Shown: positions 1,060 through 24,377, counted from the stretch's first letter. The stretch: 24,377 nt of DNA from an uncultured Candidatus Bathyarchaeia archaeon (GCA_964487485.1 CAZAQQ010000003.1:1-24377); one strand, 5' to 3'. The notes: generated from the sequence alone by a model not told the origin. Program-made: numbers and translations.

Positions 1060-1419
1060 TCACATTGTAGCTGGGCTGAAAACATCGTAAAGCAAAGTAT
1101 CTTCTTCAAAGCGCACTTTATGCTTCGTATTCTTGGGTACCCTGATGATCATGCCCTTGCCAACGTCAAACTCGCCGATGCCGTCTACCCACATTTTGCC
1201 TCTGCCTGTCAACGGATAGAGTATGTCGTCTTGCTCCTTGTGGACATGCTCAGGCACCTCAAAGCCTTTCTTAGCCCTGACTAACATGCAGGTTACGTCT
1301 GCTCCATGATCTTTCTTCGATAGCAAAACCTTGATTTCCACACCTTTCGCTATGGGGTGAGGATTCCACGCCACATCATCTTCCTTGGTAACAACCTTCA
1401 TCCCTATCCCTTCTCTCAT
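1060..1419 (-). CDS. Cupin domain protein (metal-binding beta-barrel)
   Basis: Motif 1 GFEVPEHVHKEQDDILYPLTG (HxH plus acidic residue) and motif 2 GMIIRVPKNTKHKV; 119 aa; T-rich tract after the stop on the minus strand. Confidence 0.9.
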   Translation of the reverse strand: MREGIGMKVVTKEDDVAWNPHPIAKGVEIKVLLSKKDHGADVTCMLVRAKKGFEVPEHVHKEQDDILYPLTGRGKMWVDGIGEFDVGKGMIIRVPKNTKHKVRFEEDTLLYDVFSPATM

Positions 1420-1446
1420 ATGGCTGAAACAAATCTATGTTCTAAC

Positions 1447-1454
1447 TTTTAATA
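1447..1454 (-). promoter_or_regulatory. Putative TATA box for the cupin gene
   Basis: TATTAAAA on the minus strand about 28-35 nt upstream of ATG 1419, consistent with a nearly leaderless archaeal transcript. Confidence 0.4.
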
Positions 1455-1472
1455 TTACCGTCCATGGTTCCC

Positions 1473-1492
1473 AAAAAAGGGGAGATAGCCCC
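1473..1492 (-). terminator. Putative terminator downstream of the acyl-CoA ligase gene
   Basis: Minus strand GGGG-CTATCT-CCCC-TTTTTT: short GC stem followed by a U6 tract, about 45 nt after the stop at 1537. Confidence 0.6.
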
Positions 1493-1536
1493 AACACATG
1501 TGTCGAACATTCGCACGTTTAGGTTTGTCAAGCGAG

Positions 1537-2889
1537 TTAATGCTTGCGTTTGTCTAGGAGCCGCCAGACGCGGGTTGCTTTCACTCTCTTCTCCGGTGAA
1601 GTCTTCTCTGCGAGGCCGCCGAAGGGATAAAGCTTAACGTCTACGCTGAATCCAACTCCAGCGCGCAGACCCTCCTCCAACCTTGCCTTTAGGTCTTCCA
1701 CGCTTTTTGTTTTGGCATCAATATACTCAACATGCAATGTACAGACATCAACGCCGCCTGGATTGTCCACTTCAATTAGATACTCGCTGCCTAGTTCTGG
1801 GAACTTGCCCATGGTTGCTTCAAAGGCTGATGGGAAAGACATGATGCCTTTTACCTTGAACATATCGTCTGCTCTGCCTTTTATCGGGGCTATCCTTCGG
1901 AGGGTTCTACCGCATGCGCATGGTTCCTCAATAATGTAGGTTAAGTCCTCTGTATTGTACCTAATCACGGGCATTGCTTCTTTGAATAGGGAGGTAACAA
2001 CCAAGACTCCTTCTTCGCCCGGCCTAAGGGGCTCTTTTGTATCCCTATCCAATATCTCAAATATGTAGCCGTCTTCATTGATGTGCATGCCGTACTCGGG
2101 GCAAACGAATGTTGGAGACCCTATCTCCACTGTGCCCCAGTTATTGTAGGTTTTGCAGCCGAACTTATCTTCTATCCTCTTCCTCATTGGGTCTGGAAGC
2201 GGCTCCGCGGTGTGGGTAGTGATACGAATCTTGAGATCTTTTCTAGGATCAAGACCCATCTTCTCAGCTTGATCCCCGATGTACAGCGCGTAGGATGGCG
2301 TGCATGCAAGAACCGTCGAACCCCAATCCTTCGCAAGCTCAACCTGTCTAATAGTTGGCGTCACAGCTCCACTGCCTGCCGGTACGACCATGGCTCCTAG
2401 CTTCATGGCGCCTTCGCTGAAAGTGAAGCCGGGGATGAAAAGCGAGTATGAGAATGCTACCTGAACTATATCTTTTGACCTAACTCCCTGTATGTATAGC
2501 CTTCTTGCCTGGAGATTGGCTATAACTTGCCAATCATACCATGTGTGGAGAATAGGTTTCGGTTTTCCCGTTGTCCCTGTTGTGGATTGTATTCTAACGA
2601 AGGGAAGATCTCCGAAATCTCCGAAGGGCGGTCGCGCTTGGTATCCTTTCTGCAAGCCAAGCTTGTCGAACCAAGGTAGCTTAGATACGTCTTCAGCTGT
2701 TTTTACATCTTCGGGCCTGACACCTGCTGCTTCCCACAGTTTTCTGTAGTATGGTATTCGATCCCACGCTTTCTCGACCTGCGCTCTAAGCCTCCTGTCT
2801 TGAATCTCCTTAATGGTCTTCCGAGAAGCTTTCTCAAGCTTCTCAAAGGCTGGCCCGTACGGGAAATCTATATCCCATGGTTGAGACAA
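1537..2889 (-). CDS. paaK: Phenylacetate-CoA ligase family (PaaK-like) AMP-forming acyl-CoA ligase
   Basis: 450 aa; STTGTTGKPK P-loop, ACTPSYAL, TAEP, YNNWGTVE, IRYNTEDL and IKGRADDMFKVKG motifs of the PaaK family. The symbol is family-level; the substrate is not established. Confidence 0.9.
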   Translation of the reverse strand: MSQPWDIDFPYGPAFEKLEKASRKTIKEIQDRRLRAQVEKAWDRIPYYRKLWEAAGVRPEDVKTAEDVSKLPWFDKLGLQKGYQARPPFGDFGDLPFVRIQSTTGTTGKPKPILHTWYDWQVIANLQARRLYIQGVRSKDIVQVAFSYSLFIPGFTFSEGAMKLGAMVVPAGSGAVTPTIRQVELAKDWGSTVLACTPSYALYIGDQAEKMGLDPRKDLKIRITTHTAEPLPDPMRKRIEDKFGCKTYNNWGTVEIGSPTFVCPEYGMHINEDGYIFEILDRDTKEPLRPGEEGVLVVTSLFKEAMPVIRYNTEDLTYIIEEPCACGRTLRRIAPIKGRADDMFKVKGIMSFPSAFEATMGKFPELGSEYLIEVDNPGGVDVCTLHVEYIDAKTKSVEDLKARLEEGLRAGVGFSVDVKLYPFGGLAEKTSPEKRVKATRVWRLLDKRKH

Positions 2890-3001: not shown

Positions 3002-3295
3002 ATGTTCCACGCGCTCTATCTTGACTGGCACCAGGTAGGCCCTAGTGGCCAGTTGAAAAAAGCTAATTTTGACTCTAGAAACATAAGGCTAATTCATGAT
3101 AGGGATTTAGGATGGTGTTTTTTTCGAGGAGTTGAAATCCTCAACGCATGGACTAAAGCTGGTTTTCTTAAGGAAAGTGGCTTTTTGAGCAAGAAGTATC
3201 AGCTAACCGAAAACGCAGCGAGACTGCTGTCGAAACACAGAGAGGAGTTGCCCAAAAACTTAAATTTCCTGCGAACTAACAAGCCGACAAATTAG
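3002..3295 (+). CDS. Hypothetical protein, possible winged-helix fragment
   Basis: 97-aa ORF directly upstream of the CoA-transferase genes; ILNAWTKAGFLKESGFLSKKYQLTENAARLL resembles the helix-wing end of wHTH regulators, but the N-terminal half is unconvincing. Confidence 0.35.
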   Translation: MFHALYLDWHQVGPSGQLKKANFDSRNIRLIHDRDLGWCFFRGVEILNAWTKAGFLKESGFLSKKYQLTENAARLLSKHREELPKNLNFLRTNKPTN

Positions 3296-3307: not shown

Positions 3308-4261
3308 TTGGTGCTTTATACCAGTGAGGATAAGCTCATGCCGCTGAGCGAAGCGATCAAGAAATATGTGAATGATGGAGATAAGGTCTGCTTCGGCGGA
3401 GCCTTGATCCTCAGGGAACCTATCGCTGCAATATATGAATTGATCAGGCAGAAGAAGAGGAACTTGCATATTATCGGAACCGCGCATGGCTTTGATGTAG
3501 ATCTGGCTTGTGGCGGGGGGATCGTAGGCACGGAAGAGCATACCTACGTGGCCTACGAGTTCGTTTACCGTGGGGGCTGCCCAAACTATAGAAGAGCAGT
3601 TGAACAAGGTAAAATTGAGGAGAAAGAGAACTGCTGCTACTCTGTCATCGCGGGGCTAAGAGCACAATCTTATGGGCAAACCTTCTATCCTGTAGACTTC
3701 CTCCATGGGACAGAAGACATCAAGTATCATCCGGAATACAAGGAGATTACTTGCCCCTATACAGGCAGAAAACTCATAGCAGTCCCACCTATTAAACCCG
3801 ATGTGGCGATTCTTCATGTTTACAAGGCTGATAAGCGCGGCAACGGCGCGTTGGGAGCGCCTCTTGTCGCCGACGTACTCATGATGAGAGCTGCTAAGAG
3901 GACTATATTGACGGCGGAAGAAATCGAACCTACAAGCTGGTTCACTGAAAGACAGGCCGCTCTAATTCCCTACTTCCACACCGCAGCCGTGAGCCATGCG
4001 CCCTTCGGAGCTCACCCAACTGCTTGCTACCTCTACTACACATACGATAAGGAATTCCTCAATGAATATCTAGAGTATGCGCGTGAGGGAGATGAAAGTA
4101 TGGCGAAATGGCTTGACAAGTACGTTTACGGCGTTTCCAGCCACGATGAGTACTTGAAGAAAGTTGGAGAGGAAAGGTTGAAGCAACTACGAGACTGGAG
4201 AAAGATGAGGGAAGAAGCAGAAAACCTGAGGAAGAAACTGAAGGAGGAATGGGTGATCTAG
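3308..4261 (+). CDS. Family I CoA-transferase alpha subunit (GctA/IpdA-like)
   Basis: MPLSEAIKKYVNDGDKVCFGG, KPDVAILHVYKADKRGN, AAKRTILTAEEI and APFGAHPTAC are typical of glutaconate CoA-transferase A-type subunits. Confidence 0.9.
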   Translation: MVLYTSEDKLMPLSEAIKKYVNDGDKVCFGGALILREPIAAIYELIRQKKRNLHIIGTAHGFDVDLACGGGIVGTEEHTYVAYEFVYRGGCPNYRRAVEQGKIEEKENCCYSVIAGLRAQSYGQTFYPVDFLHGTEDIKYHPEYKEITCPYTGRKLIAVPPIKPDVAILHVYKADKRGNGALGAPLVADVLMMRAAKRTILTAEEIEPTSWFTERQAALIPYFHTAAVSHAPFGAHPTACYLYYTYDKEFLNEYLEYAREGDESMAKWLDKYVYGVSSHDEYLKKVGEERLKQLRDWRKMREEAENLRKKLKEEWVI

Positions 4262-5161
4262 ATGCCGAAGATCGTTGACTATAGTATAGATGAACTTATG
4301 GCCGTCTGTCTTGCTCGATGCATATCCGATGGCGACATGGTTTTTCACGGTGTAGCGTCACCTTTGCCTATGACTGCCCTTTATCTAGCGAAGAAAACTC
4401 ATGCGCCCCATATGATTTATCTCGCAGGAGTTGGTGGCGGACTCGACCCTACGCCACCCTTTCTCCCAGAATCGACAAATGATATTTGGCTGCAATGGGG
4501 ATCAGTGTACGCCCTCACGATAGACAGAGTATTCGACTACTTCGCAACGGGTGACTGCACTGTCATGTTCTTCAGCGGTGGACAAATAGACAAGTACGGA
4601 AGCACCAACAACACTTTGTACGGGAAAGATTGGAGAAGGCCCAAGACAAAGTTCCCAGGAGGCGCAGGAGCCTGCAATCTTCACTCCCTCACACCGAAAG
4701 TTGTTGCGTGGACGACTAGGCATAAGGTGTTCGCCCATCCTAAGACAGGTGAGAAGCTTTACACATTGGTTGATAAGGTTGACTTCGTCACCTCTGGTGG
4801 GTACATTCTTCCAGACCCGAAGGATCCGGCGAGGAAGAGGATGATAACAAGGGAGGAAGCGGGATGTAGACCGGGGACAGGACCCTACAAATGCGTAACT
4901 GACCTAGGTGTTTTCGGGTACGATGAGAAGACGAAGATAATGAAACTCGAGTCTGTACATCCAGATGTTACCGTCAAGGATATTCTTGAAAACACGGAGT
5001 TCAAGCCCGTAATTCCAGATCAGAGCAATGTGCCAACCACGAAACCTCCAGCAAAAGAGGAAGTATTGTTGCTAAGGACTGAAATAGACATATACAGAAT
5101 GCGCGTGCTGGAATTCCGCGGCGGAGCTAAGGAATGCGACTCTCGAAGATACAAATTCTAA
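4262..5161 (+). CDS. Family I CoA-transferase beta subunit (GctB/IpdB-like), canonical catalytic Glu apparently absent
   Basis: DELMAVCLAR, FFSGGQIDKYGSTN, FPGGAGA, VDFVTSGG, VTDLGVF and LESVHPDVT motifs. GGTGA ribosome-binding site overlaps the end of the alpha gene. IYLAG occupies the position of the usual xxESG motif. Confidence 0.9.
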   Translation: MPKIVDYSIDELMAVCLARCISDGDMVFHGVASPLPMTALYLAKKTHAPHMIYLAGVGGGLDPTPPFLPESTNDIWLQWGSVYALTIDRVFDYFATGDCTVMFFSGGQIDKYGSTNNTLYGKDWRRPKTKFPGGAGACNLHSLTPKVVAWTTRHKVFAHPKTGEKLYTLVDKVDFVTSGGYILPDPKDPARKRMITREEAGCRPGTGPYKCVTDLGVFGYDEKTKIMKLESVHPDVTVKDILENTEFKPVIPDQSNVPTTKPPAKEEVLLLRTEIDIYRMRVLEFRGGAKECDSRRYKF

Positions 5162-5235: not shown

Positions 5236-5625
5236 CTAATTCCGCGTTCGGTGTTGCTCAGCATAAGGGCCATGCTGATTTTCCGTTACTACACCTGTTA
5301 CGAGGTCGATTGCGAACAATATGTCTTCTCTAGGCAGCATGCTTGATAGTGTCGCAAGAACTTCTCTAAGCAAGTCCTTTGGCACAAATTCCGGCGGCTC
5401 CATAGCCAGTCTCAGCAACTGAACGGCTTTTCGTTGTGCCGGGAAATTTAGTCTAGACCGCGCTAGCTCCTCCAACGTTACGCCCAGAATCACCGACTCT
5501 CTTTCGTAGAGATAGAGGAGCACATCTGCGATTTCTTCAGAGGAGACTGACTCAACTTTCTTAAGAGCCAGCAAGAGTTTCAGTCGCCTCTTTCGACGCC
5601 TTTCAAGCCCAGAATAATTGGTCAC
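5236..5625 (-). CDS. Hypothetical helical protein
   Basis: GGAGG 7 nt upstream of GTG 5625 gives a ~129-aa ORF (MTNYSGLERRRKRRLKLLLALKK...); protein-like composition; no family recognised. Confidence 0.55.
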   Translation of the reverse strand: MTNYSGLERRRKRRLKLLLALKKVESVSSEEIADVLLYLYERESVILGVTLEELARSRLNFPAQRKAVQLLRLAMEPPEFVPKDLLREVLATLSSMLPREDILFAIDLVTGVVTENQHGPYAEQHRTRN

Positions 5626-5744
5626 CACTGCGCCTCCTAATTCCTCCCTGTTATGAATGTGAATGGCAATCATGTGCATTTATGAAAGTAGCATCGTTCT
5701 AGCTAGCATAAAGGTCACATTCTTCATCACAACTCCACTTTGCG

Positions 5745-6032
5745 CTAGGCAAACCTATCGCCGAAAACTTTGTAATCTTTCTCCAAAAAGTTAGATAGTT
5801 GTCTAGCTAAAATCTTTGTTGAAGACTTCGAGGCCGAAGTTCCTAGCATACTAAACTCATAATCGCACCTGGGGCACCGAACTCTAGGGCATCGAAGAAC
5901 AGACTGTTGGCAACCAACGCAGGCTACGGCTCTAGAGTAAAGGATTGAAAACCTAAATCCGCAGTTGGGACACTGCACAAGGTTCGTGACTTTCTTTGTT
6001 CTTCTTATTTCTTCGATTTCCCAAGGTTCCAA
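5745..6032 (-). CDS. Small Cys-rich (7 Cys) zinc-ribbon or Fe-S-like protein
   Basis: CPNC-x13-CVGC-x6-C-x4-CPRC. The start is moved to TTG 6032 because the track ORF (to 6203) overlaps the corrinoid gene on the other strand. Confidence 0.75.
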   Translation of the reverse strand: MEPWEIEEIRRTKKVTNLVQCPNCGFRFSILYSRAVACVGCQQSVLRCPRVRCPRCDYEFSMLGTSASKSSTKILARQLSNFLEKDYKVFGDRFA

Positions 6033-6099
6033 AACGGAAGCCAGCTCTGGAGCAAACTCTAATATATCTAGTAGGTTAAAGCTAAATCCGGCGATTATT

Positions 6100-6738
6100 A
6101 TGTCTTCTGAAAAGGAAATTCTTGAAAGGCTGAAAGCATCTGTGGCCGCAGGCGAGGAGGAAACTGCGGAGAGATTGGCTAAGGAAGCGCTCAGCAAGAT
6201 CAAGCCAACAAAAATCTTGGAAGCCGCGTCAGCGGGGATGGCAGTTATGGCGGAAAAGTACTCGCGTAACGAAGTATTTCTGCCTGAGGCTACTGTTACT
6301 ACAGCCGCTTTCTACAAGGCGTTTGAAGTCGTACAGCCTGCGATGAAGGAGGCTGCGCCGCCAAAGCTCGGTAAAGTAGTTATTGGAAGCGGCTTTGGGG
6401 ATGTGCATGATGTTGGAAAGAACTTGGTTAAAGTCATGCTAGAAGCAGCAGGGTTTGAAATCTATGATTTAGGACGTAATGTGACAGCTGAACAATTCCT
6501 AAACAAGGCGATGGAAATCAAGGCGGATATAGTAGCCATATCAGCCTTATACACGCCTACTGTCGTTGACATAAGGAGGTTTGTTAAGCTGCTGAATGAG
6601 AAAGGTGTCAAGGGCAAAATCAAAGTTATGATAGGCGGCGGCTCTACGTCGCCAGCGATTGCTGAAAGCCTAGGCATAACCTACGGAAAAGACTTGCATG
6701 ACGCAGTTTTGAAGGCCAAAGCCTTGGTGGGTAGGTGA
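6100..6738 (+). CDS. Methyltransferase cognate corrinoid (B12-binding) protein
   Basis: Four-helix cap followed by the DxHxxG motif (GDVHDVGKNLV), LEAAGFEIYDLGRNV, SALYTPT and IGGG. Real start ATG 6100 (212 aa); the track's N-terminal 45 aa overlap the opposite-strand gene. Confidence 0.93.
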   Translation: MSSEKEILERLKASVAAGEEETAERLAKEALSKIKPTKILEAASAGMAVMAEKYSRNEVFLPEATVTTAAFYKAFEVVQPAMKEAAPPKLGKVVIGSGFGDVHDVGKNLVKVMLEAAGFEIYDLGRNVTAEQFLNKAMEIKADIVAISALYTPTVVDIRRFVKLLNEKGVKGKIKVMIGGGSTSPAIAESLGITYGKDLHDAVLKAKALVGR

Positions 6739-6744: not shown

Positions 6745-7818
6745 ATGGCAAGTAAGGAGCTTTCTTCTTTCGACAGGATTGGGATGGCGGCAAGAGGGGA
6801 AGAACCGGATCGCGTGCCTATGGGTTGGCTTGGACACTTTGAGCAGGGAATTGCCCTGCCTAATGTGAAAGTGTTTGAGGTTGTGACTGACAAGTCAGGT
6901 CGAAGGCTCTTTCAAGGAATAAAGGCTGTTTTTGATCGTTACAACCCAGATGCAATCACTGTGTTCACTTACACAATCGTGGAAGCTGTAGCTATGGGAA
7001 CAAAGCCCAAGTATTATCCGGATATTCCGCCAGGTCCGTTTGAATATGTGGTGAAGGAGCCGAGGGATCTTGATTTGCTTAAGATTCCGGATCCTAGGTT
7101 CGATGGAGATTTGCCCTGCATATACAACGCCATAAGGCAGGTTGTGAAGGAGTATGGGGGCAGAGTACCTATCGCATCGAATACGACGGGGCCATGCGCA
7201 GTCGCGGCAAGGATCAGAGGCCTTTGGGAGTTTTGCTACGATATTATGAAGAGGCCTTGGTTTGCACATGACTTAATGGAGCATGCAACTCAAGCTTGCA
7301 TCAACATTATCAGCCACTACATACCCCTAGGCCTCACAGGAATAGGTTGGGGAGCGGGCTCTGAGACAACCATAAGCGCAGACCAATTCAGGAAGTTCGT
7401 GTTGCCCTATGACAGGAGATATGTTAGGGCAGCTAGAAAAATGGGTGTTTACAGCTTTACTAGGCATGTGTGCTCCGGCCCAAGCGCGCCCTACGTTGTC
7501 GATGCCTACACCGACATAGCGAGAGACGGGGCCTACACCATTTGGGGCCTTTTCGAGTCTCCTGAGGTTATGGCTAAGAAAAAAGAGCAGTTTCCAAAGC
7601 CAATCGTAACAGGAGGAGGCCCGAACACATCGCTCGTACAACTGGGCAAGCCTGCAGAAGTAGTAAACGAGGTAAAAAGATGGATCAAGACAGTGGCTCC
7701 TGGCGGGCGATACCTGTTCATAGGTGACTGCGGAATCCCACCTGCTGCAACACTTGAAAACGTAGACGCCTACGTAAAAACAGCGAAGGAAGCTGGAAAA
7801 TATCCGATAAAAATCTAG
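6745..7818 (+). CDS. UroD-fold cobalamin-dependent methyltransferase (MtaA/CmuA family, Zn-thiol type)
   Basis: EEPDRVP start, VEAVAMG, TTGP, H241-V-C243 and C329 (GDCGIPP...ENV) form the HxC...C zinc site; 6 nt downstream of the corrinoid gene. Confidence 0.88.
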   Translation: MASKELSSFDRIGMAARGEEPDRVPMGWLGHFEQGIALPNVKVFEVVTDKSGRRLFQGIKAVFDRYNPDAITVFTYTIVEAVAMGTKPKYYPDIPPGPFEYVVKEPRDLDLLKIPDPRFDGDLPCIYNAIRQVVKEYGGRVPIASNTTGPCAVAARIRGLWEFCYDIMKRPWFAHDLMEHATQACINIISHYIPLGLTGIGWGAGSETTISADQFRKFVLPYDRRYVRAARKMGVYSFTRHVCSGPSAPYVVDAYTDIARDGAYTIWGLFESPEVMAKKKEQFPKPIVTGGGPNTSLVQLGKPAEVVNEVKRWIKTVAPGGRYLFIGDCGIPPAATLENVDAYVKTAKEAGKYPIKI

Positions 7819-7944
7819 TGCGTTACCATACTATCTTTTTTTGGAAATTATCTTCCATTCTGCGAAATCATTAATCCTAGACCCAAAAGCTAATATGCGC
7901 CTACGGTAGGTGCTGGGTTCTCCAAGTGGTTGGAGGTATATTGT

Positions 7945-8443
7945 GTGGCGCGGGAAGAAATTTTGAAGAGAGCTTATGAGCTGGGTTACAAATACCAGAG
8001 AGACAATAGGAATTGTGCGCAGTCCACCGTAGCCGCTGTGCAAGACGCTTTGAACATGAGGGACGATAACGCTTTCAGAGCTGCCAGTGGCCTCGCAGGC
8101 GGATCTGCCTTCATGGGTGTTGGGAATTGCGGAGCCTATTCCGGAGGAGTAATGATCATCAGCTCTAGGTACGGTCGAGAACGTAAGGATTTCAGCGATA
8201 TCAAAGTACCGTCGCTCTCTGGAAGTGGCTAAGAAACTCTACGAGAAGTTCAAGCAGGAATACGATAGTTGCATTTGCCATGACATTCAACGGAAGGTTT
8301 TCGGCAGGTCTTTCAACCTATGGGATAGCCATGACCTTGAGGAGTTTACGAAGGCGGGAGGGTTCTCTGAGAAATGTCCAATCGTTGTTGGAAAGGCTGC
8401 TGCTTGGGTCGCTGAAATAATTTTAGACACTGAGGAGAAATAG
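7945..8443 (+). pseudogene. C_GCAxxG_C_C family putative redox protein, split by a frameshift near 8200-8206
   Basis: GGAGG at 7932, GTG 7945. Frame 1 has NCAQS and GNCGAYSGG up to DFSDIK; frame 2 continues KYRRSLEVAKKLYEKF...CICHDI...KCPIVVG to TAG 8443. Together they make one full-length family member. Confidence 0.8.
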
Positions 8444-8535
8444 CTTCTATCTCCAAGCGTCCATATGATGATTTGGCGGCTGGCTTGGGGGACATCAGCC
8501 TCCAACAGTTTCGAAGAACAAACCGTGAGCGGAGC

Positions 8536-8549
8536 AAGCCGAGAGGCTT
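8536..8549. terminator. Small GNRA-loop hairpin between convergent genes
   Basis: AAGCC-GAGA-GGCTT between the stop at 8443 (+) and the stop at 8568 (-). Confidence 0.3.
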
Positions 8550-8567
8550 CAGGAGTGGTGTTAGCGA

Positions 8568-8879
8568 CTAGGATTTTGTGGAAAGCTTCTGCCTTATTTC
8601 TCGTACCTCAGCCTCTAACACAAATACTTTCTGCGCCAAGTCAAACCGCTTCCCAAGCTCCTCGACTTTTAGATCGACTGCCTTAACATCCTTGCTTAAC
8701 GAATCGAACCTAGAGTCGAAAAGCTCAACAGCACTCTCAAGTTTTGAGTCGAAAAGCTTAGTCATACTGTCAAACTTCACATCGAAGAGCTTAACGACGC
8801 TTTGCAGCTCCTCCTTGACAATTTCTCTTACTTCAGGCGCGGTAAGCCTTTTGATAACTTCTTTTGCAGTCTTCGCCAT
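8568..8879 (-). CDS. Small coiled-coil protein with three 11-residue repeats
   Basis: KLFDVKFDSMT / KLFDSKLESAV / ELFDSRFDSLS; 33-bp periodicity in the DNA (GAGTCGAAAAGCT at 8713 and 8746, variant at 8779); C-terminal VLEAEVREIRQKL. Confidence 0.75.
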   Translation of the reverse strand: MAKTAKEVIKRLTAPEVREIVKEELQSVVKLFDVKFDSMTKLFDSKLESAVELFDSRFDSLSKDVKAVDLKVEELGKRFDLAQKVFVLEAEVREIRQKLSTKS

Positions 8880-8928
8880 TGTCCTCGATATGTTAAGGTG
8901 AAGTCTCCTCTTTAAAAGTTACTTCAGG

Positions 8929-9090
8929 CTAAGCCACGGCAGTAACTCTAGCTCCTCCTTCATTAACTTCATCTAGGCTAATGTCTGCTGGCTCGGCTTG
9001 ATCTTTCGTGACTGGCGCAGTTGTGTATAGCTTTTGGCCAGCTGCCAAATATTGGATGGTAAGGCATTGCGCTTTTTCGCCAGAGGCCAT
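8929..9090 (-). pseudogene. Possible degenerate UPF0175-like antitoxin remnant
   Basis: Manual translation MASGEKAQCLTIQYLAAGQKLYTTAPVTKDQAEPADISLDEV... loosely resembles the LY-x4-VT-x3-AE-x-A-x-ISL pattern of UPF0175; an adjacent frame gives KLMKEELELLPWL. Confidence 0.2.
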
Positions 9091-9129
9091 TCATCAAGGA
9101 ATGCGGTAGTATCACCTGTCACAGCGTCT

Positions 9130-15967: not shown

Positions 15968-16675
15968 TTGCTGAAATTGAATGATGTACATGCCTATTAT
16001 GGCTTGAGCCATGTGCTTCAAGGAATATCCCTAGAGATAGGGGATAAAGAGATTGTAACCCTCCTAGGAAGAAACGGCATGGGAAAGACTACGACATTTA
16101 ACACTATTATGGGCGTTATCCAGCAAACTTCGGGCAACATCACACTTCAAGGTGAAGACATTAGGGGGCTACCTCCACATAAAGTAGCTAGAAAAGGCAT
16201 AGGCTACATACCTCAAGGAAAAATGCCATTTCCAACCCTGACCGTGCTGGAAAACCTATCCTTAGGCACAAGCAGCGTAGCAAAGGCAAGTAAGGAATTC
16301 ATTTCTGAAAAACTGGATGAGGTATATGAACTCTTCCCAATTTTAAAGGAGCGAAGACTGCAAAGGGCAATGACCCTGAGTGGCGGTGAGCAACAAATGC
16401 TAGCGATTGCACGAGCATTGATGGGTGAGCCTAAGCTTCTTCTGTTGGACGAGCCCAGTGAATCGCTGGCGCCCATAGTTGTAAGGCAAATTTTCGATAC
16501 TGTTCGCAAGCTACGCGAGAAGGGCAATACAGTATTCCTAGCCGAGCAAAACGTGAAGGGAGCTCTGGAGATTTCTGACCGTTGCTACGTCTTGGAGAAG
16601 GGAAAAATTGTTTTCGAAGGCAGTTCAAGAGAGGTAGAAAAGAGCGAGATAGCGAAGACAAGCTTAGGTGTCTGA
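15968..16675 (+). CDS. livF: ABC transporter ATP-binding protein (LivF family)
   Basis: Walker A GRNGMGKTT, LSGGEQQMLAIARAL, LLLDEPS, LAEQNV. Confidence 0.95.
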   Translation: MLKLNDVHAYYGLSHVLQGISLEIGDKEIVTLLGRNGMGKTTTFNTIMGVIQQTSGNITLQGEDIRGLPPHKVARKGIGYIPQGKMPFPTLTVLENLSLGTSSVAKASKEFISEKLDEVYELFPILKERRLQRAMTLSGGEQQMLAIARALMGEPKLLLLDEPSESLAPIVVRQIFDTVRKLREKGNTVFLAEQNVKGALEISDRCYVLEKGKIVFEGSSREVEKSEIAKTSLGV

Positions 16676-17389: not shown

Positions 17390-17812
17390 ATGTCGCATGT
17401 GTATCAAGTGAAGGCGAAGTGGCTGGAGGATGTGAAGGGAAGACTTGAGGCTGGCAAGAACGCTTTTGATTTTTCCGTTCCACTGGATTTCGGCGGTCCA
17501 GAGGGCTATTTCTCGCCAGAAGAGCTTTTCGCAGCTTCTGTTGTAACCTGTCTATGCACCACATTTTGGAACACACTCAAGAAAATGAGGGTGAAACTCA
17601 TGGAATGTGAAGTTGAGGGCAACACAAGTCTACAGCCAGACCCAGAAGGCTTTCACTTCACAGATGTAGTTGTGAAATTGAAAGCAAAGGTCGAGGATAG
17701 CAAGATGGTTGAACAGGCCAAGAAGGCGTGGGAGAAGGCTGAGAAGAGATGCTTCGTGTCGAGAGCCCTGAAAGGAAACGTAGGTGTCAAGGTGGAAGCT
17801 AGCATATCATGA
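17390..17812 (+). CDS. osmC: OsmC family protein (peroxiredoxin-like)
   Basis: FGGPEGYFSPEELFAASVVTCLCTTF and AEKRCFVSRAL carry the two conserved Cys of the OsmC/Ohr fold. Confidence 0.9.
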   Translation: MSHVYQVKAKWLEDVKGRLEAGKNAFDFSVPLDFGGPEGYFSPEELFAASVVTCLCTTFWNTLKKMRVKLMECEVEGNTSLQPDPEGFHFTDVVVKLKAKVEDSKMVEQAKKAWEKAEKRCFVSRALKGNVGVKVEASIS

Positions 17813-18182: not shown

Positions 18183-18974
18183 GTGGACATAGTTAAGGTT
18201 CTGAGTTTAGCCATCGAATCCGCGGCAAAGGCTGGGAGAATAGAGCCCTCGGATGAAGTGAGGGTGGCGGCTTTGAGGTGGGAGATCTATGCGAGCCTAC
18301 AAAACCTACTTGACTCGCTTGCGATGGTGGTGGCTGACCTCGGCTTGAGGAAGCCCAGCTCGTACAGCGAGCTAGGTTCTATTCTATTTGAGCGTGGGGT
18401 ATTGGATGCGGAGGACGTGAAGCTTGTCAAGCAGGCGGTTGCAACTAGGAACGTTATGGCTCATGCCTACCGGGCAGTGGAAGTCGATGAACTCAGAAGT
18501 TTGAAGCAGACCGTTCTGCCGAAGGTGCAGGAGATCGCCCGGAAGCTTGTAGGCTACGTTAAGGACGCTGGGCTTGACCCTGAGGTGGTTTGTCCAAGTG
18601 GCCTAGCTGAGGTTTTTGGAAGAAGTGGGGTTCAACTCGCTTACCTTTTCGGCAGCAGAGCTAGAGACGCCTTTAGGGAGGACAGCGACTACGACTATGC
18701 AATCTTGTTCGGACGGCATGTTGCTGTGGAGGATGAGGTTGAGCTGGTGGTGGAACTAGCTGACGCGCTAGGAGTTTCCGTCGATATGGTTAATGTTGTG
18801 GCGTTGGATCGAGCGGACCTTGAGTTGGCGCATAGGGTCTTGAAAGAGGGTAAGCTTGCTTATTCAAGAGATGAAAGTTTCAGAAGGACTTGGGAAAGGG
18901 ACATATTCCTGCAGGCGTTGGACAGCAGGGATCTCTATGATGTCTACGTGAGCAGAGTGGGAAAGAGAAGTTGA
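18183..18974 (+). CDS. Fused HepT-like (DUF86/HEPN) RNase toxin and MNT nucleotidyltransferase antitoxin
   Basis: R89-N-V-M-A-H94-A-Y96 (RX4HXY) in the N-terminal half; G157-S158-x10-D169-x-D171 (GSX10DXD) in the C-terminal half; one 263-aa ORF; GGTGA site upstream. Confidence 0.88.
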   Translation: MDIVKVLSLAIESAAKAGRIEPSDEVRVAALRWEIYASLQNLLDSLAMVVADLGLRKPSSYSELGSILFERGVLDAEDVKLVKQAVATRNVMAHAYRAVEVDELRSLKQTVLPKVQEIARKLVGYVKDAGLDPEVVCPSGLAEVFGRSGVQLAYLFGSRARDAFREDSDYDYAILFGRHVAVEDEVELVVELADALGVSVDMVNVVALDRADLELAHRVLKEGKLAYSRDESFRRTWERDIFLQALDSRDLYDVYVSRVGKRS

Positions 18975-18995: not shown

Positions 18996-19069
18996 GGCTG
19001 AGAAGAGATGTTTCGTTTCGAGGGCCCTTGGGAAACGTAGGCGTTAAGGTAGAAGCCGACATCTTGTGA
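18996..19069 (+). repeat. Decayed second copy of the OsmC 3' end
   Basis: Translates AEKRCFVSRAL, 2-nt deletion, GNVGVKVEADIL-stop, versus AEKRCFVSRALKGNVGVKVEASIS-stop. Confidence 0.9.
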
Positions 19070-19159
19070 AAGTTGGGCATGCAAATAGGGCTTTCACTGA
19101 CGGAAACTAAATGTTGCCTGAATACTGTTTGCTCGCAGCAGCGTAAGTTTCACTGAGGC

Positions 19160-19480
19160 TTGATGTTCTTGACGAAAATCTTGGTTCGCCCAGGAGCATG
19201 TGGATTTGATGCTGTAATAGAAGCAACAAGGTCAAATAATGCTGTGAAGCTTAAAATAGAGTCGAAATGCGAAAACATCAAAGAGCTCGCCAAAGACCTC
19301 CAAGAAGTTTCAATAGAAGATTTCTATGGCAGTGGAAGCATCGCGAAGAATAAGATATACACGGTTGCTACGAACTGTATTCGCCATCCAGCCTGCCCAG
19401 TTCCCTGCGCAATCGCGAAAGCTGTTGAAGCCGAACTAGGTCTAGCATTGAAAAAAAATGTGAGCATCGAATTCCTGTGA
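19160..19480 (+). CDS. Small Cys-rich conserved protein (resembles the DUF6951 family)
   Basis: PGACGF, IESKC, HPACPVPCAIAKAVEAELGLALKKNVSIEF match a conserved family of anaerobes as I recall it; the family name needs an HMM check. The start may be TTG 19169. Confidence 0.75.
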   Translation: MMFLTKILVRPGACGFDAVIEATRSNNAVKLKIESKCENIKELAKDLQEVSIEDFYGSGSIAKNKIYTVATNCIRHPACPVPCAIAKAVEAELGLALKKNVSIEFL

Positions 19481-19768
19481 ACATATCATCAAAAATCCTT
19501 TGACATACTTAGCTAACCTAGATCTTAAGAATATCTGTAAATGGTTGTTACATGGCATATTACTTTGAGCCATATCGAAAGCTAATAACGACAAGAAAAA
19601 AATTAGAAAAAAGGAATAACTAATGGAGAAACTCACTTCCTTAAAATTGGATACAGAAAAGTGAAAGTGGGTGGTGCGAACCCTTGTTTACATTGAAGTA
19701 GTATAAAGAAGAAATAGTATGAAACGTATCGCGCAAAAAAGGAGCGAAATATTGGCTGGGTAGTATAA

Positions 19769-20950
19769 GTGGGAAATATGAGAAAATTTTCGTTCCAATG
19801 GATTGTTTTGGTTACTGGTTTGTTCATAGGGGTCTGCGGAGCTTTTAGTTTTTTTAGAGCCTCACCTATAATTCCGACGTTAATCAATGTTTTTCACTTC
19901 GACATAGTTATTGCAGGTCTTTTGATGGCAATATTTGCCATCGCAGTAGCTACCTTATCCATTCCCATAGGCTTGATGGCAATCAAGTATGATGCTAGAA
20001 AAATCTGTATGATCGCATTATTGCTGATAATGGCCGGGGCAATTGTTGGAGTTCTAGCAACAAACATAGAAAGCTTACTCCTCGGAAGGTTATTAGAAGG
20101 TGCAGGGCTAGCGTTCATCATGACAGCAACACCCGCATTTGTCATGCGATGGTTCCCTCCTGAAAAAGGAGGGACTGTAATGGCTGTTTGGGCTAATTTT
20201 TTCCCCCTAGGCACCATAACCGGACTTAACATATCAGCGATAGTTATGATTGCATATGGATGGAAAGTAGCTTGGTTGACAAGTTTCATCTTTTCACTTA
20301 TCGGCCTCATCTTAATAATCCTCCTAAGAAGAGAGCCTGAACCATTAGCAAAGTTAGCTAGAAATAATGAACGCACTACTTCAACTCGAGAGTTAATAGC
20401 TAACCTTGACCTCTGGCTTATAGCATTAACCTTCCTGTTGGCACAGATTGTAGTTGCCGCCTTCCTAACGCTAGGACCTACATATTTGGTTGAGGCTAGA
20501 AACCTGACAATTGTCTACGCATCGTTTGCAGTCAGCCTATTCATGATTTTCGGCATACTTGGAACAGGTATGGGTGGCATAATATCTGATAGAATCTGGT
20601 CAAGAAAACGTGTTTACATTCCAGCTTTGCTCATATCTTTGATTCTTTATCCGTCCTTGATGTTTTCAACCGGTTTAACCATAACTATCATGATAATTAT
20701 TTGGGGATTTGCATTCAGCTTTGCTCCACCAGCATTATTTGCATGTGCATCCGATATACTTGGGCCGAGAGCAGCTGGTCTAGGGTTAGGCATTATTAAC
20801 TCGGCCATAGGCGCTAGTATGGCTATAGGGCCCTTACTTTTCGTATCACTTTATGAATCAATGGGCTCTTGGGACATCGCACTCCTCTTTTTTCTACCAT
20901 TAAGCATAGCTGCGGTAATAGTCGGATTGCTGCCAAAAAACGTAAAATAA
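19769..20950 (+). CDS. MFS transporter (CynX/NimT-like)
   Basis: About 12 hydrophobic segments; LLLGRLLEGAG, RWFPPEKGGTVMAVW, GGIISDRIWSRK. Confidence 0.9.
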   Translation: MGNMRKFSFQWIVLVTGLFIGVCGAFSFFRASPIIPTLINVFHFDIVIAGLLMAIFAIAVATLSIPIGLMAIKYDARKICMIALLLIMAGAIVGVLATNIESLLLGRLLEGAGLAFIMTATPAFVMRWFPPEKGGTVMAVWANFFPLGTITGLNISAIVMIAYGWKVAWLTSFIFSLIGLILIILLRREPEPLAKLARNNERTTSTRELIANLDLWLIALTFLLAQIVVAAFLTLGPTYLVEARNLTIVYASFAVSLFMIFGILGTGMGGIISDRIWSRKRVYIPALLISLILYPSLMFSTGLTITIMIIIWGFAFSFAPPALFACASDILGPRAAGLGLGIINSAIGASMAIGPLLFVSLYESMGSWDIALLFFLPLSIAAVIVGLLPKNVK

Positions 20951-21277
20951 CATTTAGTTTGCCCATCGCCTGATTTCCCCTTCATGCGCTTGATTTTACT
21001 TATTACTTTGGATTACCTTAGAGGTTTGGGACAAAAGCTAGCGCTTAGTCCTCATTGATAGTGGGTATCTTTGTAATTCAAGCAGATCTTAACCTAACAA
21101 ACGCCTAGGCGGCGGTCATAGGTGTGGTCCTTGCCTAATATGCCGCCAAAAACTGCCTCTTCCTTCTTCTGGCTTTCCATTCAACTCCTAATGAGATAGC
21201 TGATCCTACCTCTTTACGGCATTGGGAGAAAAAATCTTATACGCACAATACGTGTCAAAGAGAAGAAGACAGGTTAG

Positions 21278-22120
21278 GTGATGGTCGACATGGTTAGTTC
21301 AACAAGCTTCGAAAACGCTCTAATGTCATTTGAAATAAGTGGATCTGGAAATAAGTCTCCAATCGTTCTAGTTCCTGGGGGACTTAGCGGCTGGATAAGC
21401 TGGAAGCTCCAAGCAGAAGTACTCTCAAAGAACCACGTGGTAATACGAGTGCAACTGTTGTGCATGGCCGCCGCTGAGAAGAATCAGCTTCCGGGGGAAG
21501 GCTATTCTCTCCGATCAGAGACGAAGGCTCTCAAGAACACGTTAGACAAACTCAACATTAGGAAGGTGAATTTGGTAGGATATGCACACGGGGGAGCAGT
21601 ATCTCTAGATTTCGCTTTGGAATATCCCAACCTGATAAACACCTTGACGCTCATAGGGCCTAGTGCATATTGGGTAGCGCGAGCTTACAGAAAGTTTCAG
21701 GAAGAAGAACAAAGATTAGCTAGGTCTCTGAAGGGATTGCACTACCCTGTTACTGAAGATGACCTCATACGATTTGTGAAGATGAACCATCTTGTCCCTG
21801 AGGGCGTAGACCCGAGGACTGTATCGCGGTGGCCCGCATGGAACTCACTTAAGATTTCTCTCCTAACCCTAAACACAGCTATAGAGCATTCAGATGATTT
21901 AGCTAGGCTGAAGGTGCTCAGCGTTATACCAGTTTTGCTTGTAAAGGGAAGGGATTCGACGGGATTCTATTCTGGGATAGCGGGCTTGCTGTCGAAGAGT
22001 ATAGGGCCAAGTGCAAAGGTTATTACTCTGCCGGGTGGCCATGCCTGCCATATAGAGGCCAAGGATCAATTCATTTCGGCGCTCGAAGAGTTCCTGAGCG
22101 AAGCAAAGGAAGCAAAATAG
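21278..22120 (+). CDS. Alpha/beta-hydrolase fold protein with Ala at the nucleophile position
   Basis: PIVLVPGG, NLVGYAHGGAVSLDFALEYP, PVLLVKGRDS, TLPGGHACHIEAKDQF. Confidence 0.88.
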   Translation: MMVDMVSSTSFENALMSFEISGSGNKSPIVLVPGGLSGWISWKLQAEVLSKNHVVIRVQLLCMAAAEKNQLPGEGYSLRSETKALKNTLDKLNIRKVNLVGYAHGGAVSLDFALEYPNLINTLTLIGPSAYWVARAYRKFQEEEQRLARSLKGLHYPVTEDDLIRFVKMNHLVPEGVDPRTVSRWPAWNSLKISLLTLNTAIEHSDDLARLKVLSVIPVLLVKGRDSTGFYSGIAGLLSKSIGPSAKVITLPGGHACHIEAKDQFISALEEFLSEAKEAK

Positions 22121-22194
22121 CTCATATAAACTCACAGTCATAATGTGACATATTACAAATACCATCCAAGAGTTAAACGGGTAAACGTCATGCG

Positions 22195-23391
22195 GTGAAA
22201 TTTGTGTCCAAGAATGCAACAAATATACATCAAAAACCCGGGATAAGCATATTAGCCGCTTCTTGCATAATTGGTTTTCTGACTTATGCAGGATTCTCCT
22301 TGAGAACTCCGATAATTCCGCTTTACGCAGTTGATGTAGGCGCTTCTATCGTGGAAGTAGGGGTGATCACCTCTTCGTTCATGATTGGCACAACCTCGAT
22401 GTGTGTAGTCTCTGGCTTATTTTCAGACTGGCTGGGGCGTAAGCGGCTACTAATCTGTGGCTCTTTCCTTGGGGCCGCAGCGTCTTTCTTTTTTCTACCA
22501 TCAACTTCCCCCTATATACTTCTGCTAGTTAATCTGCTAGCTGGAATCGGTCATGGCATATATTCGCCAACGATGTTTGCCTTGATTGGAGACATGGCGA
22601 AGGAGGAGCATCTAGCCACAGCATATGGATGGTATACTACAGCTACGAACTCTTGTATGTTTGTAGCTCCAGCGATCGGAGGGTTCATAGCATATTTCAT
22701 GGGGTTCAAAAACTTATTCGCCATATCTGCCATGATAATGAGTTTATCGATTCTCATGGTGATATTAACGATTCCGCAAGTTCAAAGGAAACAGTCTTTT
22801 AACATCCATAGTCAGGGAAAAAACAACCCGATGTCGAGGCGTTTCAATAGGCCGATAATCGCTGCTTGTATCGGAAGCTTCTGCTTCACGTTTGCCTACG
22901 GCGCACCAAATGCGTTTCTACGGATTTATGGCGCGAGCATCGGTCTTACTGTCGAAATAATTGGCTTAATAGTGGCTGCTGCAGGAGGAGCGAGTGCTGT
23001 TTTTCGGATTCCGATGGGGATGCTGATGGATAGGATTAGGAACAGGGTTAGTTTTCTCACGGTGGCTTTAGGGACGTGTACTGTTGCAGTAATACTAGCG
23101 CCCTGGCTAGAAAGCATTTGGCTTCTAATGGCAGTGATGGCCATTCTAGGCGTAGATACGGCCATAGTAACAATAGCTGCCGCCACCATTATCGCTGAGA
23201 CCAGTGGGGATCCAAGTCGGGGTCTCGCGATGGGAGTCTATTGGACATTTTTCTACGGTGGATTTGGCGCAGGTGGAGCCTTCGCTGGCCTGTCTATATC
23301 AACTCTCGGATTCCAAGGGGGGTTCGCCCTCACATCTGGAGTTGCAATTATCGGCATCGTACTGTTGAACCTCTTAGCGAAGATTCGCTGA
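22195..23391 (+). CDS. MFS transporter
   Basis: GLFSDWLGRKRLL motif A, GMLMDRIRNR in the second half, about 12 transmembrane segments. Confidence 0.92.
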   Translation: MKFVSKNATNIHQKPGISILAASCIIGFLTYAGFSLRTPIIPLYAVDVGASIVEVGVITSSFMIGTTSMCVVSGLFSDWLGRKRLLICGSFLGAAASFFFLPSTSPYILLLVNLLAGIGHGIYSPTMFALIGDMAKEEHLATAYGWYTTATNSCMFVAPAIGGFIAYFMGFKNLFAISAMIMSLSILMVILTIPQVQRKQSFNIHSQGKNNPMSRRFNRPIIAACIGSFCFTFAYGAPNAFLRIYGASIGLTVEIIGLIVAAAGGASAVFRIPMGMLMDRIRNRVSFLTVALGTCTVAVILAPWLESIWLLMAVMAILGVDTAIVTIAAATIIAETSGDPSRGLAMGVYWTFFYGGFGAGGAFAGLSISTLGFQGGFALTSGVAIIGIVLLNLLAKIR

Positions 23392-23487
23392 TTCCTATGA
23401 GACCACATCCAGCCTTTAAGAAGAAATAAAATCGGAGTTTTGCGGCGATGCTGCTTCTTTATGTGGTCCCTGTATTCGCATAGCTAT

Positions 23488-23799
23488 TCAGTCAACAACG
23501 ACCTCAAACCACTTTCGATCAATGTTGACGACGAGTTTTATGATCTTCTCTACATTGGCGACTCTTTCCGGCGTCCTCTCGAACGCTTCCCACTTCGCCT
23601 TATTCTCCCATCTGCAACATGCAACGTATTGGGTGGGGATCTTATCAACCGTCCCCATAGGGCTTATGGGGTTAAGGAGCCACATTACTCCCCCTAGACG
23701 TTTAGCTATCACAGCGGCCTCTTTGAAGAGTTCTTCAAACTCCTTCTCCTTACCAGGTAGAATAATCATCCGGCTCATGTAGATTACATGGCTTCTCAA
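23488..23799 (-). CDS. Antibiotic-biosynthesis-monooxygenase-like dimeric alpha+beta barrel protein
   Basis: ILPGKEKEFEELFKE, YVACCRWENKAKWEAF pattern typical of the ABM/Dabb fold; 103 aa. Confidence 0.7.
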   Translation of the reverse strand: MRSHVIYMSRMIILPGKEKEFEELFKEAAVIAKRLGGVMWLLNPISPMGTVDKIPTQYVACCRWENKAKWEAFERTPERVANVEKIIKLVVNIDRKWFEVVVD

Positions 23800-24090
23800 A
23801 TCAACGACGCCCGGCTCTACTTATGTTTGATTCACTTATCCTACTTAAAGTTATTTGAAACGTCCCAAGTCTTGTTACATGCAAGAAAAGAATGAATTGG
23901 AAGAAATGAAAAACTGATTCGAAGAGGAGGTTGAAGAAGGCTCCTAGGAACTTCAGGTAGGTAGCATACACAACTCGAAATAGAACTTCCAGTCCTGCGC
24001 GACAATAGTATTAGAACAGTAACAAAGCTCAGGAAGAACTCGGTAACCAAGTTCCAAAAAAAAGGAGGTTTATGGCTCAATCCTTTATTC

Positions 24091-24377
24091 TCAGCGTGCC
24101 GGAACCTTAACTTTAATGAGACCCCACTTTGTCAATACTTCTCTGATCTTTGCCTTGAATTTATCGGGTATGTCTGGTAGCTGTGGAGGCCTTGACCATT
24201 CTCCATCTCCGGTTGGGTAGCCCATTAAAGAAGCCCAGTACTTGTAGGCTGCCTGGCAGTGTGAGAAGTAGCCCGGACGATTCTCAGACACGAATGTTAA
24301 CATGAAAGTGTCCATGATGTCCCTAACGCCAGTACCATAGTATTTTCGGATCGCATCATCAAACTTTCCGGCTATCT
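24091..24377 (-). CDS. 3' end of a probable DapA/NanA-family (class I aldolase) gene entering from beyond the window
   Basis: Frame is open to the window edge (IAGKFDDAIRKYYGTGVRDIMDTF...). YWASLMGYPTG...RPPQLPDIPDKFKAKIREVLTKWGL resembles the DHDPS-family C-terminus. A T8 tract follows on the minus strand. Confidence 0.5.
   Translation of the reverse strand, partial: IAGKFDDAIRKYYGTGVRDIMDTFMLTFVSENRPGYFSHCQAAYKYWASLMGYPTGDGEWSRPPQLPDIPDKFKAKIREVLTKWGLIKVKVPAR

Follow-up and report, generated by a model that had tools for sequence, protein, structure and literature searches.

The stretch of DNA analysed here (the window) is the whole of contig C3, 24,377 nucleotides long, from an uncultured Candidatus Bathyarchaeia archaeon (GCA_964487485.1, CAZAQQ010000003.1:1-24377). 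It carries two modules in which a zinc-site methyltransferase of the coenzyme M-methylating family (MT2) is joined to a corrinoid protein with no classical substrate-specific methyltransferase (MT1) adjacent, together with a ligase and a CoA_trans-fold protein pair. Judging from the sequences, the block would be a mosaic gene neighbourhood of an Mcr-encoding archaeon, in which a corrinoid/URO-D357/zinc-ribbon trio (module A), a single-chain MtaA-like/MtaC-like fusion (module B) and the ligase with the CoA_trans-fold pair (module C) act in the ways proposed below and not as one pathway, a reading to which we give about an even chance. A reading of the same DNA made without database searches (the sequence-only reading) had proposed a single island coupling coenzyme A (CoA) activation to demethylation, and this was not supported by co-distribution: in the Methanomethylicia family f27 (32 of the 401 Thermoproteota genomes compared) the trio is present in 8 of the 32 genomes and the alpha subunit of the CoA_trans-fold pair in none.

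Methyltransferase Genes of the Window and the Assembly

The genes were called by scanning the window proteins with Pfam and NCBIfam models, and the domains and motifs agree with the earlier description of two zinc-site MT2-family/corrinoid modules lacking an adjacent classical MT1. It also holds that the window contains no MT1 of the MtaB, MttB or MtmB type and no RACo/RamA gene. The source of the window is a metagenome-assembled genome (MAG) of an Mcr-encoding member of the Thermoproteota, with 1.53 Mb in 208 contigs, 82% completeness and 1.8% contamination. No gene for MtaB, MtmB or MtbB was detected anywhere in the assembly, which is 82% complete (for MtaB, there was no PF12176 match). The sole MttB-family gene of the assembly lies on contig C103 beside a corrinoid gene and has no in-frame stop, so that it belongs to the non-Pyl type. 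Two RACo/RamA genes are present, on contigs C24 and C68, and apart from the two URO-D genes of the window the assembly has no full-length one. A dependence on substrate-specific methyltransferases is assumed for most Mcr-encoding Thermoproteota; because the assembly shows no classical MT1 except the one MttB-family member, the two MT1-less modules become the prime candidates for handling the methyl donors of this archaeon.

The corrinoid and MttB-family genes on C103 (551-5368) stand divergently beside genes for a FAD-oxidase and a CCG-domain protein, and the same FAD-oxidase/CCG pair recurs near URO-D357 homologues in two other loci (L123 and L124).

Module A: A Narrow Transferase Family with a Zinc-Ribbon Partner

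Module A comprises a His-on corrinoid protein of 212 aa (6100-6738, plus strand, start ATG at 6100; B12-binding 80.3 bits and B12-binding_2 44 bits), URO-D357 (6745-7818, plus strand), which is a divergent zinc-site transferase of the MtaA/CmuA superfamily, and a seven-Cys zinc-ribbon protein of 95 aa (5745-6032, minus strand, start TTG at 6032). Small Cys-rich proteins had been noted before and are indeed present, with the correction that the ORF noted as 5745-6203 is really this 95-aa protein. The DVHDVG motif of the corrinoid protein lies at residue 146 of the long ORF, and both corrinoid proteins of the window possess the B12-binding_2 cap, the Rossmann B12-binding domain and the DxHxxG His-on loop.

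URO-D357 passes only the general Pfam URO-D model (138.3 bits against a cut-off of 23.9). It scores 62.4 bits with TIGR01463 (mtaA_cmuA), for which the cut-off is 235.4, and it also falls below the MtaA (NF040654) and MtbA (NF041608) equivalog models with 47.2 and 51.1 bits, respectively. Its residues H241, C243 and C329 align with the HxC...C zinc ligands of MtaA and are invariant in 15 aligned family sequences. Searches of solved structures with URO-D357, by sequence and by profile, returned only MtaA and uroporphyrinogen decarboxylases and no O-demethylase MT1. The family is narrow, with 11 other proteins at 48-76% identity followed by a fall to 30%, and among the 401 Thermoproteota genomes it was found in eight of the 32 f27 genomes, in the genome of the window and nowhere else. 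This genome is the sole member of its own family among the compared genomes and has only the phylum in common with f27.

The adjacency of the three genes is kept in L124, a metagenomic contig closely related to the window, and in L125, L127 and L129-L133, mostly in the order corrinoid protein, URO-D357, 95-aa protein; in L130 and in the window the 95-aa gene is instead placed divergently upstream of the corrinoid gene. An MT2-family enzyme beside a corrinoid protein with no MT1 was observed in the window and in nine related loci, and the corrinoid proteins of the trios, including that of the window, form one clade (SH-aLRT 96). The family alignment of the zinc-ribbon protein displays seven invariant cysteines in the pattern CPxC...CxGC...C...CPxC. 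When the complex of URO-D357 with the zinc-ribbon protein was predicted, a score of 0.44 was obtained against 0.00 for the best control, with the runs agreeing in at least 75% of contacts and a partner pLDDT of at least 68. The mark used for such predictions was reached by 58 of 80 solved complexes and by 2 of 110 mismatches, and scores of 0.60 or lower among those reaching it came from seven of the 80 solved complexes and from both mismatches. The prediction therefore lends the modelled complex weak support and, because the adjacency is conserved, the predicted binding of URO-D357 to the zinc-ribbon protein is likely.

Homologues of the zinc-ribbon protein were also seen in three Methanomassiliicoccales genomes, with two to three per genome (L155-L160). 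One of them stands in a row of corrinoid, URO-D, zinc-ribbon and hydantoinase-like genes, and two stand beside DUF169 and a radical-SAM gene with an HMPTM zinc ribbon. Downstream of the zinc-ribbon gene of the window lies a gene for a 147-aa protein without a Pfam match (5236-5679, minus strand), the L124 homologue of which (33% identical) adjoins the trio as well.

Association of Module A with ECR-Type Reductases

The trio was located directly upstream of a divergent mcrABG operon in five f27 genomes (G329, G323, G395, G377 and G259; loci L125:9344-15232, L127, L129, L132 and L133). The trio-linked McrA is 41% identical to canonical McrA of Methanomethylicota or Methanobacterium, the copies are 81-82% identical to that of L125, and in L129 the ORFs for the zinc-ribbon protein and for this reductase subunit (mcrA') overlap by 20 nt. 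The mcrA' gene occurs in six f27 genomes, all six of which contain URO-D357, and in none of the 24 genomes without URO-D357; these counts come from related genomes of four genera, which are not independent observations. The two URO-D357 genomes without mcrA' are G241, where the gene lies on a 2.6-kb contig, and G359, where it contains two stop codons. Wang et al. 2021 (PMC11057702) assign the trio-linked reductase to the ethyl-coenzyme M reductases (ECR) and propose ethanogenesis or ethane use. They note a 'cobalamin-binding protein' and a carboxylesterase around ECR; in the text consulted, the URO-D-fold transferase and the zinc-ribbon protein are not singled out.

These associations raise the alternative that module A is an ethyl or alkyl transfer system for ECR, making or consuming ethyl-coenzyme M, and that in the present genome either the ECR operon escaped assembly or the module has been turned to methyl transfer. 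We regard this as unlikely, even though the operon-like arrangement, the co-occurrence counts and the published ethanogenesis proposal speak for it. The assembly of the window yielded no mcr locus beyond a single canonical one, no mcr genes follow the trio in the window or in L124, and the trio of the window is only about 50% identical (48-54%) to the ECR-linked copies. The alpha/beta hydrolase of the window (21278-22120) is 27% identical to the hydrolase downstream of the ECR-like operon in L125.

In its more general form, the idea would make the trio a hitherto unrecognised alkyl-transfer partner of ECR-type reductases that moves ethyl or another small alkyl group between a donor and coenzyme M (CoM), which we rate as highly doubtful. 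If it were true, the presence of the trio in a second class of Thermoproteota, where it adjoins an acid-CoA ligase and a pair resembling a CoA-ester decarboxylase, would point to a path linking C2+ acids or CoA esters with alkyl-CoM, and thus to how such archaea may make or consume alkyl-CoM. Since module A is operon-like and co-distributed with ECR in Methanomethylicia, it offers a testable handle on that reductase.

The McrA of the window's own genome shares 89% identity with the McrA of a MAG labelled Bathyarchaeota, 83% with that of a Nezhaarchaeota MAG and 79% with that of a Methanomethylicota MAG. Its mcr locus (C90:1050-4585) has McrB-like and McrG-like parts in one ORF of 649 aa with no stop between them, and an McrA of 525 aa (557-581 aa in relatives), with about 34 codons unaligned at C90 3484-3587. 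The joining of McrB with McrG and the unaligned McrA stretch may be real or may be an assembly artefact.

Module B: An Independent Fusion Related to the DUF1847 Cassette

Module B is a single gene on the minus strand (10073-11833) that encodes a URO-D domain fused to a B12-binding region, with residues 1-335 MtaA-like and residues 353-586 MtaC-like (URO-D 259, B12-binding 72.7 and B12-binding_2 53.8 bits). The protein aligns end to end with MtaA (4AY7, 251.8 bits) and MtaC (2I2X_B, 162.7 bits), its zinc ligands align with those of 4AY7, and its motifs are intact, namely HIC at 234 (H234/C236), SGC and GDVHDIGKN (DVHDIG at 464). The N-terminal domain passes TIGR01463 (353.4 bits against a cut-off of 235.4) and falls below the MtaA equivalog NF040654 (343.5 < 400) and the MtbA equivalog NF041608 (246.1 < 600), and the C-terminal domain falls below the MtaC models NF040669 (204.6 < 450) and NF040655 (187 < 420).

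Fusions 37-38% identical to this protein were found directly behind mtaB in three lineages. The nearest fusion, which is 48% identical, lies between a DUF1847 gene and a convergent RACo gene, and the N-terminal domain of the window protein is 52-56% identical to the 355-aa MT355 proteins of the cassette characterised by DUF1847. This cassette consists of an NMT1-type ABC importer, DUF1847, MT355, a corrinoid protein and a convergent RACo/RamA gene (L119-L122 and L135-L141), and is strongly conserved in genomes of Methanoculleus, Methanosphaerula, Methanoregula-type organisms, Methanothrix and Methanoperedenaceae, none of which is considered methylotrophic. A literature search for the term 'DUF1847' found no paper. 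In the phylogenetic trees the N-terminal domain falls in a clade with the MT355 family (support 99) and the C-terminal domain is sister to the cassette corrinoid proteins (support 92), and the window protein groups neither with the MtaB-linked fusions nor with a Methanosarcinaceae MtaC-like protein. Since both domains branch beside the cassette family, the protein is best described as an independent MT355-corrinoid fusion. The fusion would thus have arisen from an MT355-corrinoid pair whose companions DUF1847, RACo and importer were either lost or never present here; the window has no gene for DUF1847, RACo or an NMT1-type importer, and DUF1847 was not found in the assembly. Relatives of the N-terminal domain carry the name 'methylthiol:CoM methyltransferase' in the sources, where names are assigned automatically. 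The relatives of the fusion point to a wider and unexplained DUF1847 cassette in non-methylotrophic methanogens and Methanoperedenaceae.

A second alternative is an ordinary methanol system, in which the fusion would be MtaA-MtaC, its MtaB would be encoded in the 18% of the genome that is not assembled, and URO-D357 would be a second MT2 isozyme. The best curated-model and PDB scores of the fusion are indeed those of MtaA and MtaC, the mtaB-linked fusions of three lineages offer a precedent, and the assembly is incomplete. We nevertheless rate this alternative as quite improbable: both domains branch with the MtaB-less cassette family and stay below the MtaA and MtaC equivalog cut-offs, MtaB was not found in the assembly, and URO-D357 lies far below the MT2 models (62 against 235 bits) and has its own corrinoid protein.

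On contig L124, a remnant of the 3' end of a fusion-type gene (50-53% identity over 58-66 residues) adjoins a RACo fragment with 59% identity to the RACo encoded on C68. The two remnants lie between the ligase and the trio of that contig; therefore, methyltransferase genes were earlier neighbours in this lineage. No match to the fusion protein was obtained in the Bathyarchaeota-labelled genome that has the nearest McrA (89%).

Module C: Ligase and CoA_trans-Fold Pair

Module C consists of a PaaK-family adenylate-forming ligase (1537-2889, minus strand; AMP-binding and AMP-binding_C_2), a GctA/AibA-like alpha subunit (3308-4261, plus strand; CoA_trans 65.2 bits) and a GctB/AibB-like beta subunit (4262-5161, plus strand). 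A Cupin_2 protein (1060-1419, minus strand, 41.2 bits) is encoded on the ligase strand, 117 bp downstream of the ligase gene, and a 97-aa protein without a Pfam family at E≤0.01 (3002-3295, plus strand) 12 bp upstream of the alpha subunit; no homologue of either was found in L124. The ligase scores 273.8 bits with PDB 4R1L and stays below the PaaK cut-offs of TIGR02155 (297.3 < 646.3) and NF041878 (333.3 < 700). It is 75% identical to its L124 orthologue, and its next relatives are bacterial ligases at 47-53%. In both of the bacterial contigs examined (L153:8001-11083 and L154:8001-11092, ligases 49-51% identical), UbiD-family and Phenyl_P_gamma genes follow the ligase, a context that suggests activation of an aryl carboxylate followed by decarboxylation of the CoA ester.

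The alpha subunit scores 123.9 bits with 1POI_A, 104.9 bits with 5MZW_A and 55-60 bits with IpdA, and the beta subunit 92.6-94 bits with chains B/D of 5MZW/5N00. The pair as a whole scores best with GctAB and with the PDB entries 5MZW-5N03, labelled 'glutaconate CoA-transferase family', and lower with IpdAB. We take the 5MZW-5N03 entries to be AibA/AibB, a 3-methylglutaconyl-CoA decarboxylase. At the position of the catalytic glutamate of family I CoA-transferases of the GctAB type, the beta subunit has Gly56 (4427-4429), and its YLAGVGG stretch aligns with YLACVGS of the 5MZW protein.

The island favoured by the sequence-only reading would import a methylthio- or methoxy-substituted acid through the Liv ABC importer or an MFS transporter, convert it to its CoA thioester with the ligase, demethylate it by the corrinoid modules and have the CoA ester processed or recycled by the pair. 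In its favour is the synteny of L124, where the ligase, the CoA_trans-fold pair (alpha subunit 63% and beta subunit 71% identical), two small proteins, the corrinoid protein and URO-D357 are kept together at 33-75% protein identity. It is further favoured by L125, where a PaaK-like ligase and an SSF transporter directly precede the trio, by Methanoperedenaceae-type contigs with a PaaK-like ligase beside or within the DUF1847 cassette, by the MtpCAP precedent, which includes a major facilitator superfamily (MFS) transporter, and by three divergent gene pairs with spacers of about 70-110 bp.

Several observations speak against it, and we consider it improbable. Homologues of the alpha subunit occur in 70 of the 401 Thermoproteota genomes, but not in any of the 32 that make up the family bearing the trio, and because of this the pair is not co-distributed with module A, which it adjoins only in the window and in L124. 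The ligases of L125 and of the cassette contigs are only 33% and 33-35% identical to that of the window, respectively; those of L119 and L137 go with indolepyruvate-oxidoreductase-type genes, and in both contigs inspected for closer relatives of the window's ligase, UbiD decarboxylases accompany the ligase. The catalytic glutamate is missing from the pair, and a 9-mer comparison of the intergenic spacers revealed no motif common to the three divergent ones. We know of no corrinoid methyltransferase that acts on a CoA thioester. The synteny check proposed together with the island gave a divided outcome, in that the part comprising ligase, CoA_trans-fold pair, corrinoid protein and URO-D was recovered in L124, and no conserved synteny was found for the Liv-type ABC importer, MFS, hydrolase, WrbA, OsmC, cupin and ABM genes.

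Proposed Roles of the Three Modules

In the mosaic reading, module A would move a small alkyl group, here methyl, from its donor onto the Co(I) of its corrinoid protein by a chemistry like that of MtpA and MtsA, acting on a zinc-activated thiolate or thioether, or on an ether. Module B, the only canonical MT2 of the assembly, would methylate CoM for Mcr and thereby serve module A; it may also serve the MttB-family/corrinoid pair on C103, or may take a methyl group from a thioether directly. Reductive reactivation of the corrinoids would fall to the RamA proteins encoded on other contigs. Module C, with ligase, Glu-less pair and cupin, would be a separate CoA-ester unit in which an acid is activated and then undergoes a non-transferase step, probably decarboxylation, and its link to module A would be a matter of lineage-specific synteny. 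The substrates, the direction of transfer and the partnership of modules A and B are what we infer from these assignments.

Several points weigh against this scheme. The link of module A with ECR in Methanomethylicia suggests a role tied to a reductase that was not found in the assembly of the window. At 82% completeness, MtaB, DUF1847 or an ECR operon could sit in the missing part. Binning could wrongly have joined the contig of the window to the contig with the mcr locus. The ligase, the CoA_trans-fold pair and the trio are adjacent in two related contigs, and with the PaaK-like ligase and transporter preceding the trio in L125, a link to acid activation is possible. Finally, the trees were built without characterised MtsA, MtpA, MtoB or CmuA sequences.

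Importer and Other Genes of the Window

The window carries at least eight transcription units on both strands, and the genes noted earlier as a Liv importer, two MFS transporters, a PaaK-family ligase, a CoA_trans pair, WrbA, OsmC, a cupin and an ABM-like protein were all matched by the Pfam or NCBIfam models. No DapA-like aldolase could be verified: the ORF at 21278-22120 (plus strand) is an alpha/beta hydrolase (Abhydrolase_1, 41.9 bits), and the cut ORF at 24091-24375 has no family match.

The Liv importer consists of a Peripla_BP_6 protein, two BPD_transp_2 permeases and two ATPases with a BCA_ABC_TP_C tail. Its Liv/HAAT-type substrate-binding protein with a Tat-like signal (11944-13347, plus strand; Peripla_BP_6 213.9 bits) is encoded divergently from the fusion gene with a spacer of 110 bp, and LivH, LivM, LivG and LivF homologues follow (13381-16675, plus strand; BPD_transp_2 twice, ABC_tran twice and BCA_ABC_TP_C). 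The binding protein is far below the specific models (UrtA 112 against 492, LivJ-type 46 against 477 bits). No particular ligand is singled out by the PDB matches: the best entry, 8TG1 with 92 bits, is an unnamed receptor, and there is little to choose between urea binders (about 67 bits) and binders of aromatic acids (45-58 bits). At E≤1e-50 it was found in only one other genome of the 401, with 44% identity. A second Liv-type ABC operon (C68:57-7923), 33-50% identical to that of the window (33% for the binding-protein paralogue), ends beside a convergent RACo/RamA gene that is cut by the contig end, and a Hadarchaeum mtaB-fusion locus also neighbours a Liv operon. An association of Liv operons with such genes thus recurs; it is weak, and the transporter type is very common.

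Among the remaining genes, a WrbA-like flavoprotein (9294-9932, minus strand; FMN_red 54.5 bits) is located 140 bp downstream of the fusion gene, and an OsmC-family protein (17390-17812, plus strand; 76.2 bits) follows the importer. Two MFS transporters were detected. The first (19769-20950, plus strand; MFS_1 202.1 bits) has no NCBIfam model above its cut-off, and the second (22195-23391, plus strand; MFS_1 164 bits) has efflux families as its best NCBIfam matches, all below cut-off. A DUF6951 Cys-rich protein (19160-19480, plus strand; 104.3 bits) has a weak and apparently frameshifted homologue in L124 that adjoins the ligase, and an ABM-domain protein is encoded at 23488-23799 (minus strand; 24.3 bits). 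The G+C content is 0.40-0.43 over 19001-21000, which covers the DUF6951 and first MFS genes, and about 0.47 elsewhere.

The block is broken up by an 841-nt repeat-bounded insert and by a single ORF for a HEPN(HepT-like)-MNT protein (18183-18974, plus strand; HepT-like 52.9 and Polbeta 61.7 bits), which is of the toxin-antitoxin type and not metabolic. Downstream of URO-D357, a C_GCAxxG_C_C gene (7930-8443, plus strand) is frameshifted into the ORFs 7930-8232 and 8225-8443, which cover profile positions 2-59 and 67-118. A contig of the sediment run X2 has CA inserted after 8201 and hence one open frame of 172 aa; since this frame is intact, the frameshift is an assembly error or a strain variant. 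One X2 contig joins position 9203 back to 8363 (841 nt back), which suggests that the insert 8363-9203, between the 3' end of the C_GCAxxG_C_C gene and its displaced copy, occurs in a circular or tandem form.

Comparison with Known Systems

The closest experimentally studied parallel is MtpC/MtpA/MtpP together with MtsF, which serves methylmercaptopropionate in Methanosarcina acetivorans. MtpA, an MT2-family protein, fills the role of a substrate-specific MT1 and co-purifies with the fused MtsF, the probable MT2 of the system (bioRxiv 10.1101/548461), so that the analogy drawn in the sequence-only reading is apt. As in MtpC/MtpA, module A places a URO-D-fold zinc-site MT2-family enzyme beside its own corrinoid protein with no classical MT1; as with MtsF, CoM would probably be methylated by a partner in which corrinoid and MT2 parts are fused, and MFS transporters occur in the neighbourhood. 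This likeness is one of architecture and published descriptions, not of sequence comparison with MtpA or MtsF. Unlike the Mtp system, module A has a conserved zinc-ribbon partner, and the MFS genes are 12-15 kb away without demonstrated linkage. In MtsA/MtsB of Methanosarcina barkeri (methylthiol:CoM), which has two components, one MT2 homologue performs both half-reactions on the corrinoid protein, whereas in module B both components are in one chain.

The fusion resembles MtaA/MtaC (4AY7, 2I2X) in its end-to-end alignment, its zinc ligands and its GDVHDIGKN His-on loop. It differs from MtaABC in falling below the equivalog cut-offs, in the lack of a detected MtaB and in the phylogenetic separation of both domains from the MtaB-linked fusions. 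It also departs from its own family, since the usual DUF1847, RamA and NMT1-type ABC importer genes are absent from the window. The ECR cluster of Candidatus Methanomethylicia (PMC11057702) shares the transferase/corrinoid/zinc-ribbon family with module A at 48-54% identity, but in the window and L124 no mcr-type genes come after the trio.

For module C, the two-subunit family I CoA-transferase fold is common to the pair and to GctAB (1POI), IpdAB (6CO6) and the proteins of 5MZW, presumably AibA/AibB. The beta subunit lacks the catalytic glutamate as AibB does, and differs from AibB in having Gly in place of Cys at the aligned position and in being about 50 residues longer. The ligase has the two-domain architecture of PaaK, but falls below both equivalog cut-offs and has a bacterial clade as its nearest. 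MT1-less MT2/corrinoid systems and their fused forms are already known, so that no new category is proposed here. What is new is the narrow transferase family with its zinc-ribbon partner, the tight tie of the URO-D357 family to an ECR-type reductase, and an independent fusion derived from the DUF1847 cassette.

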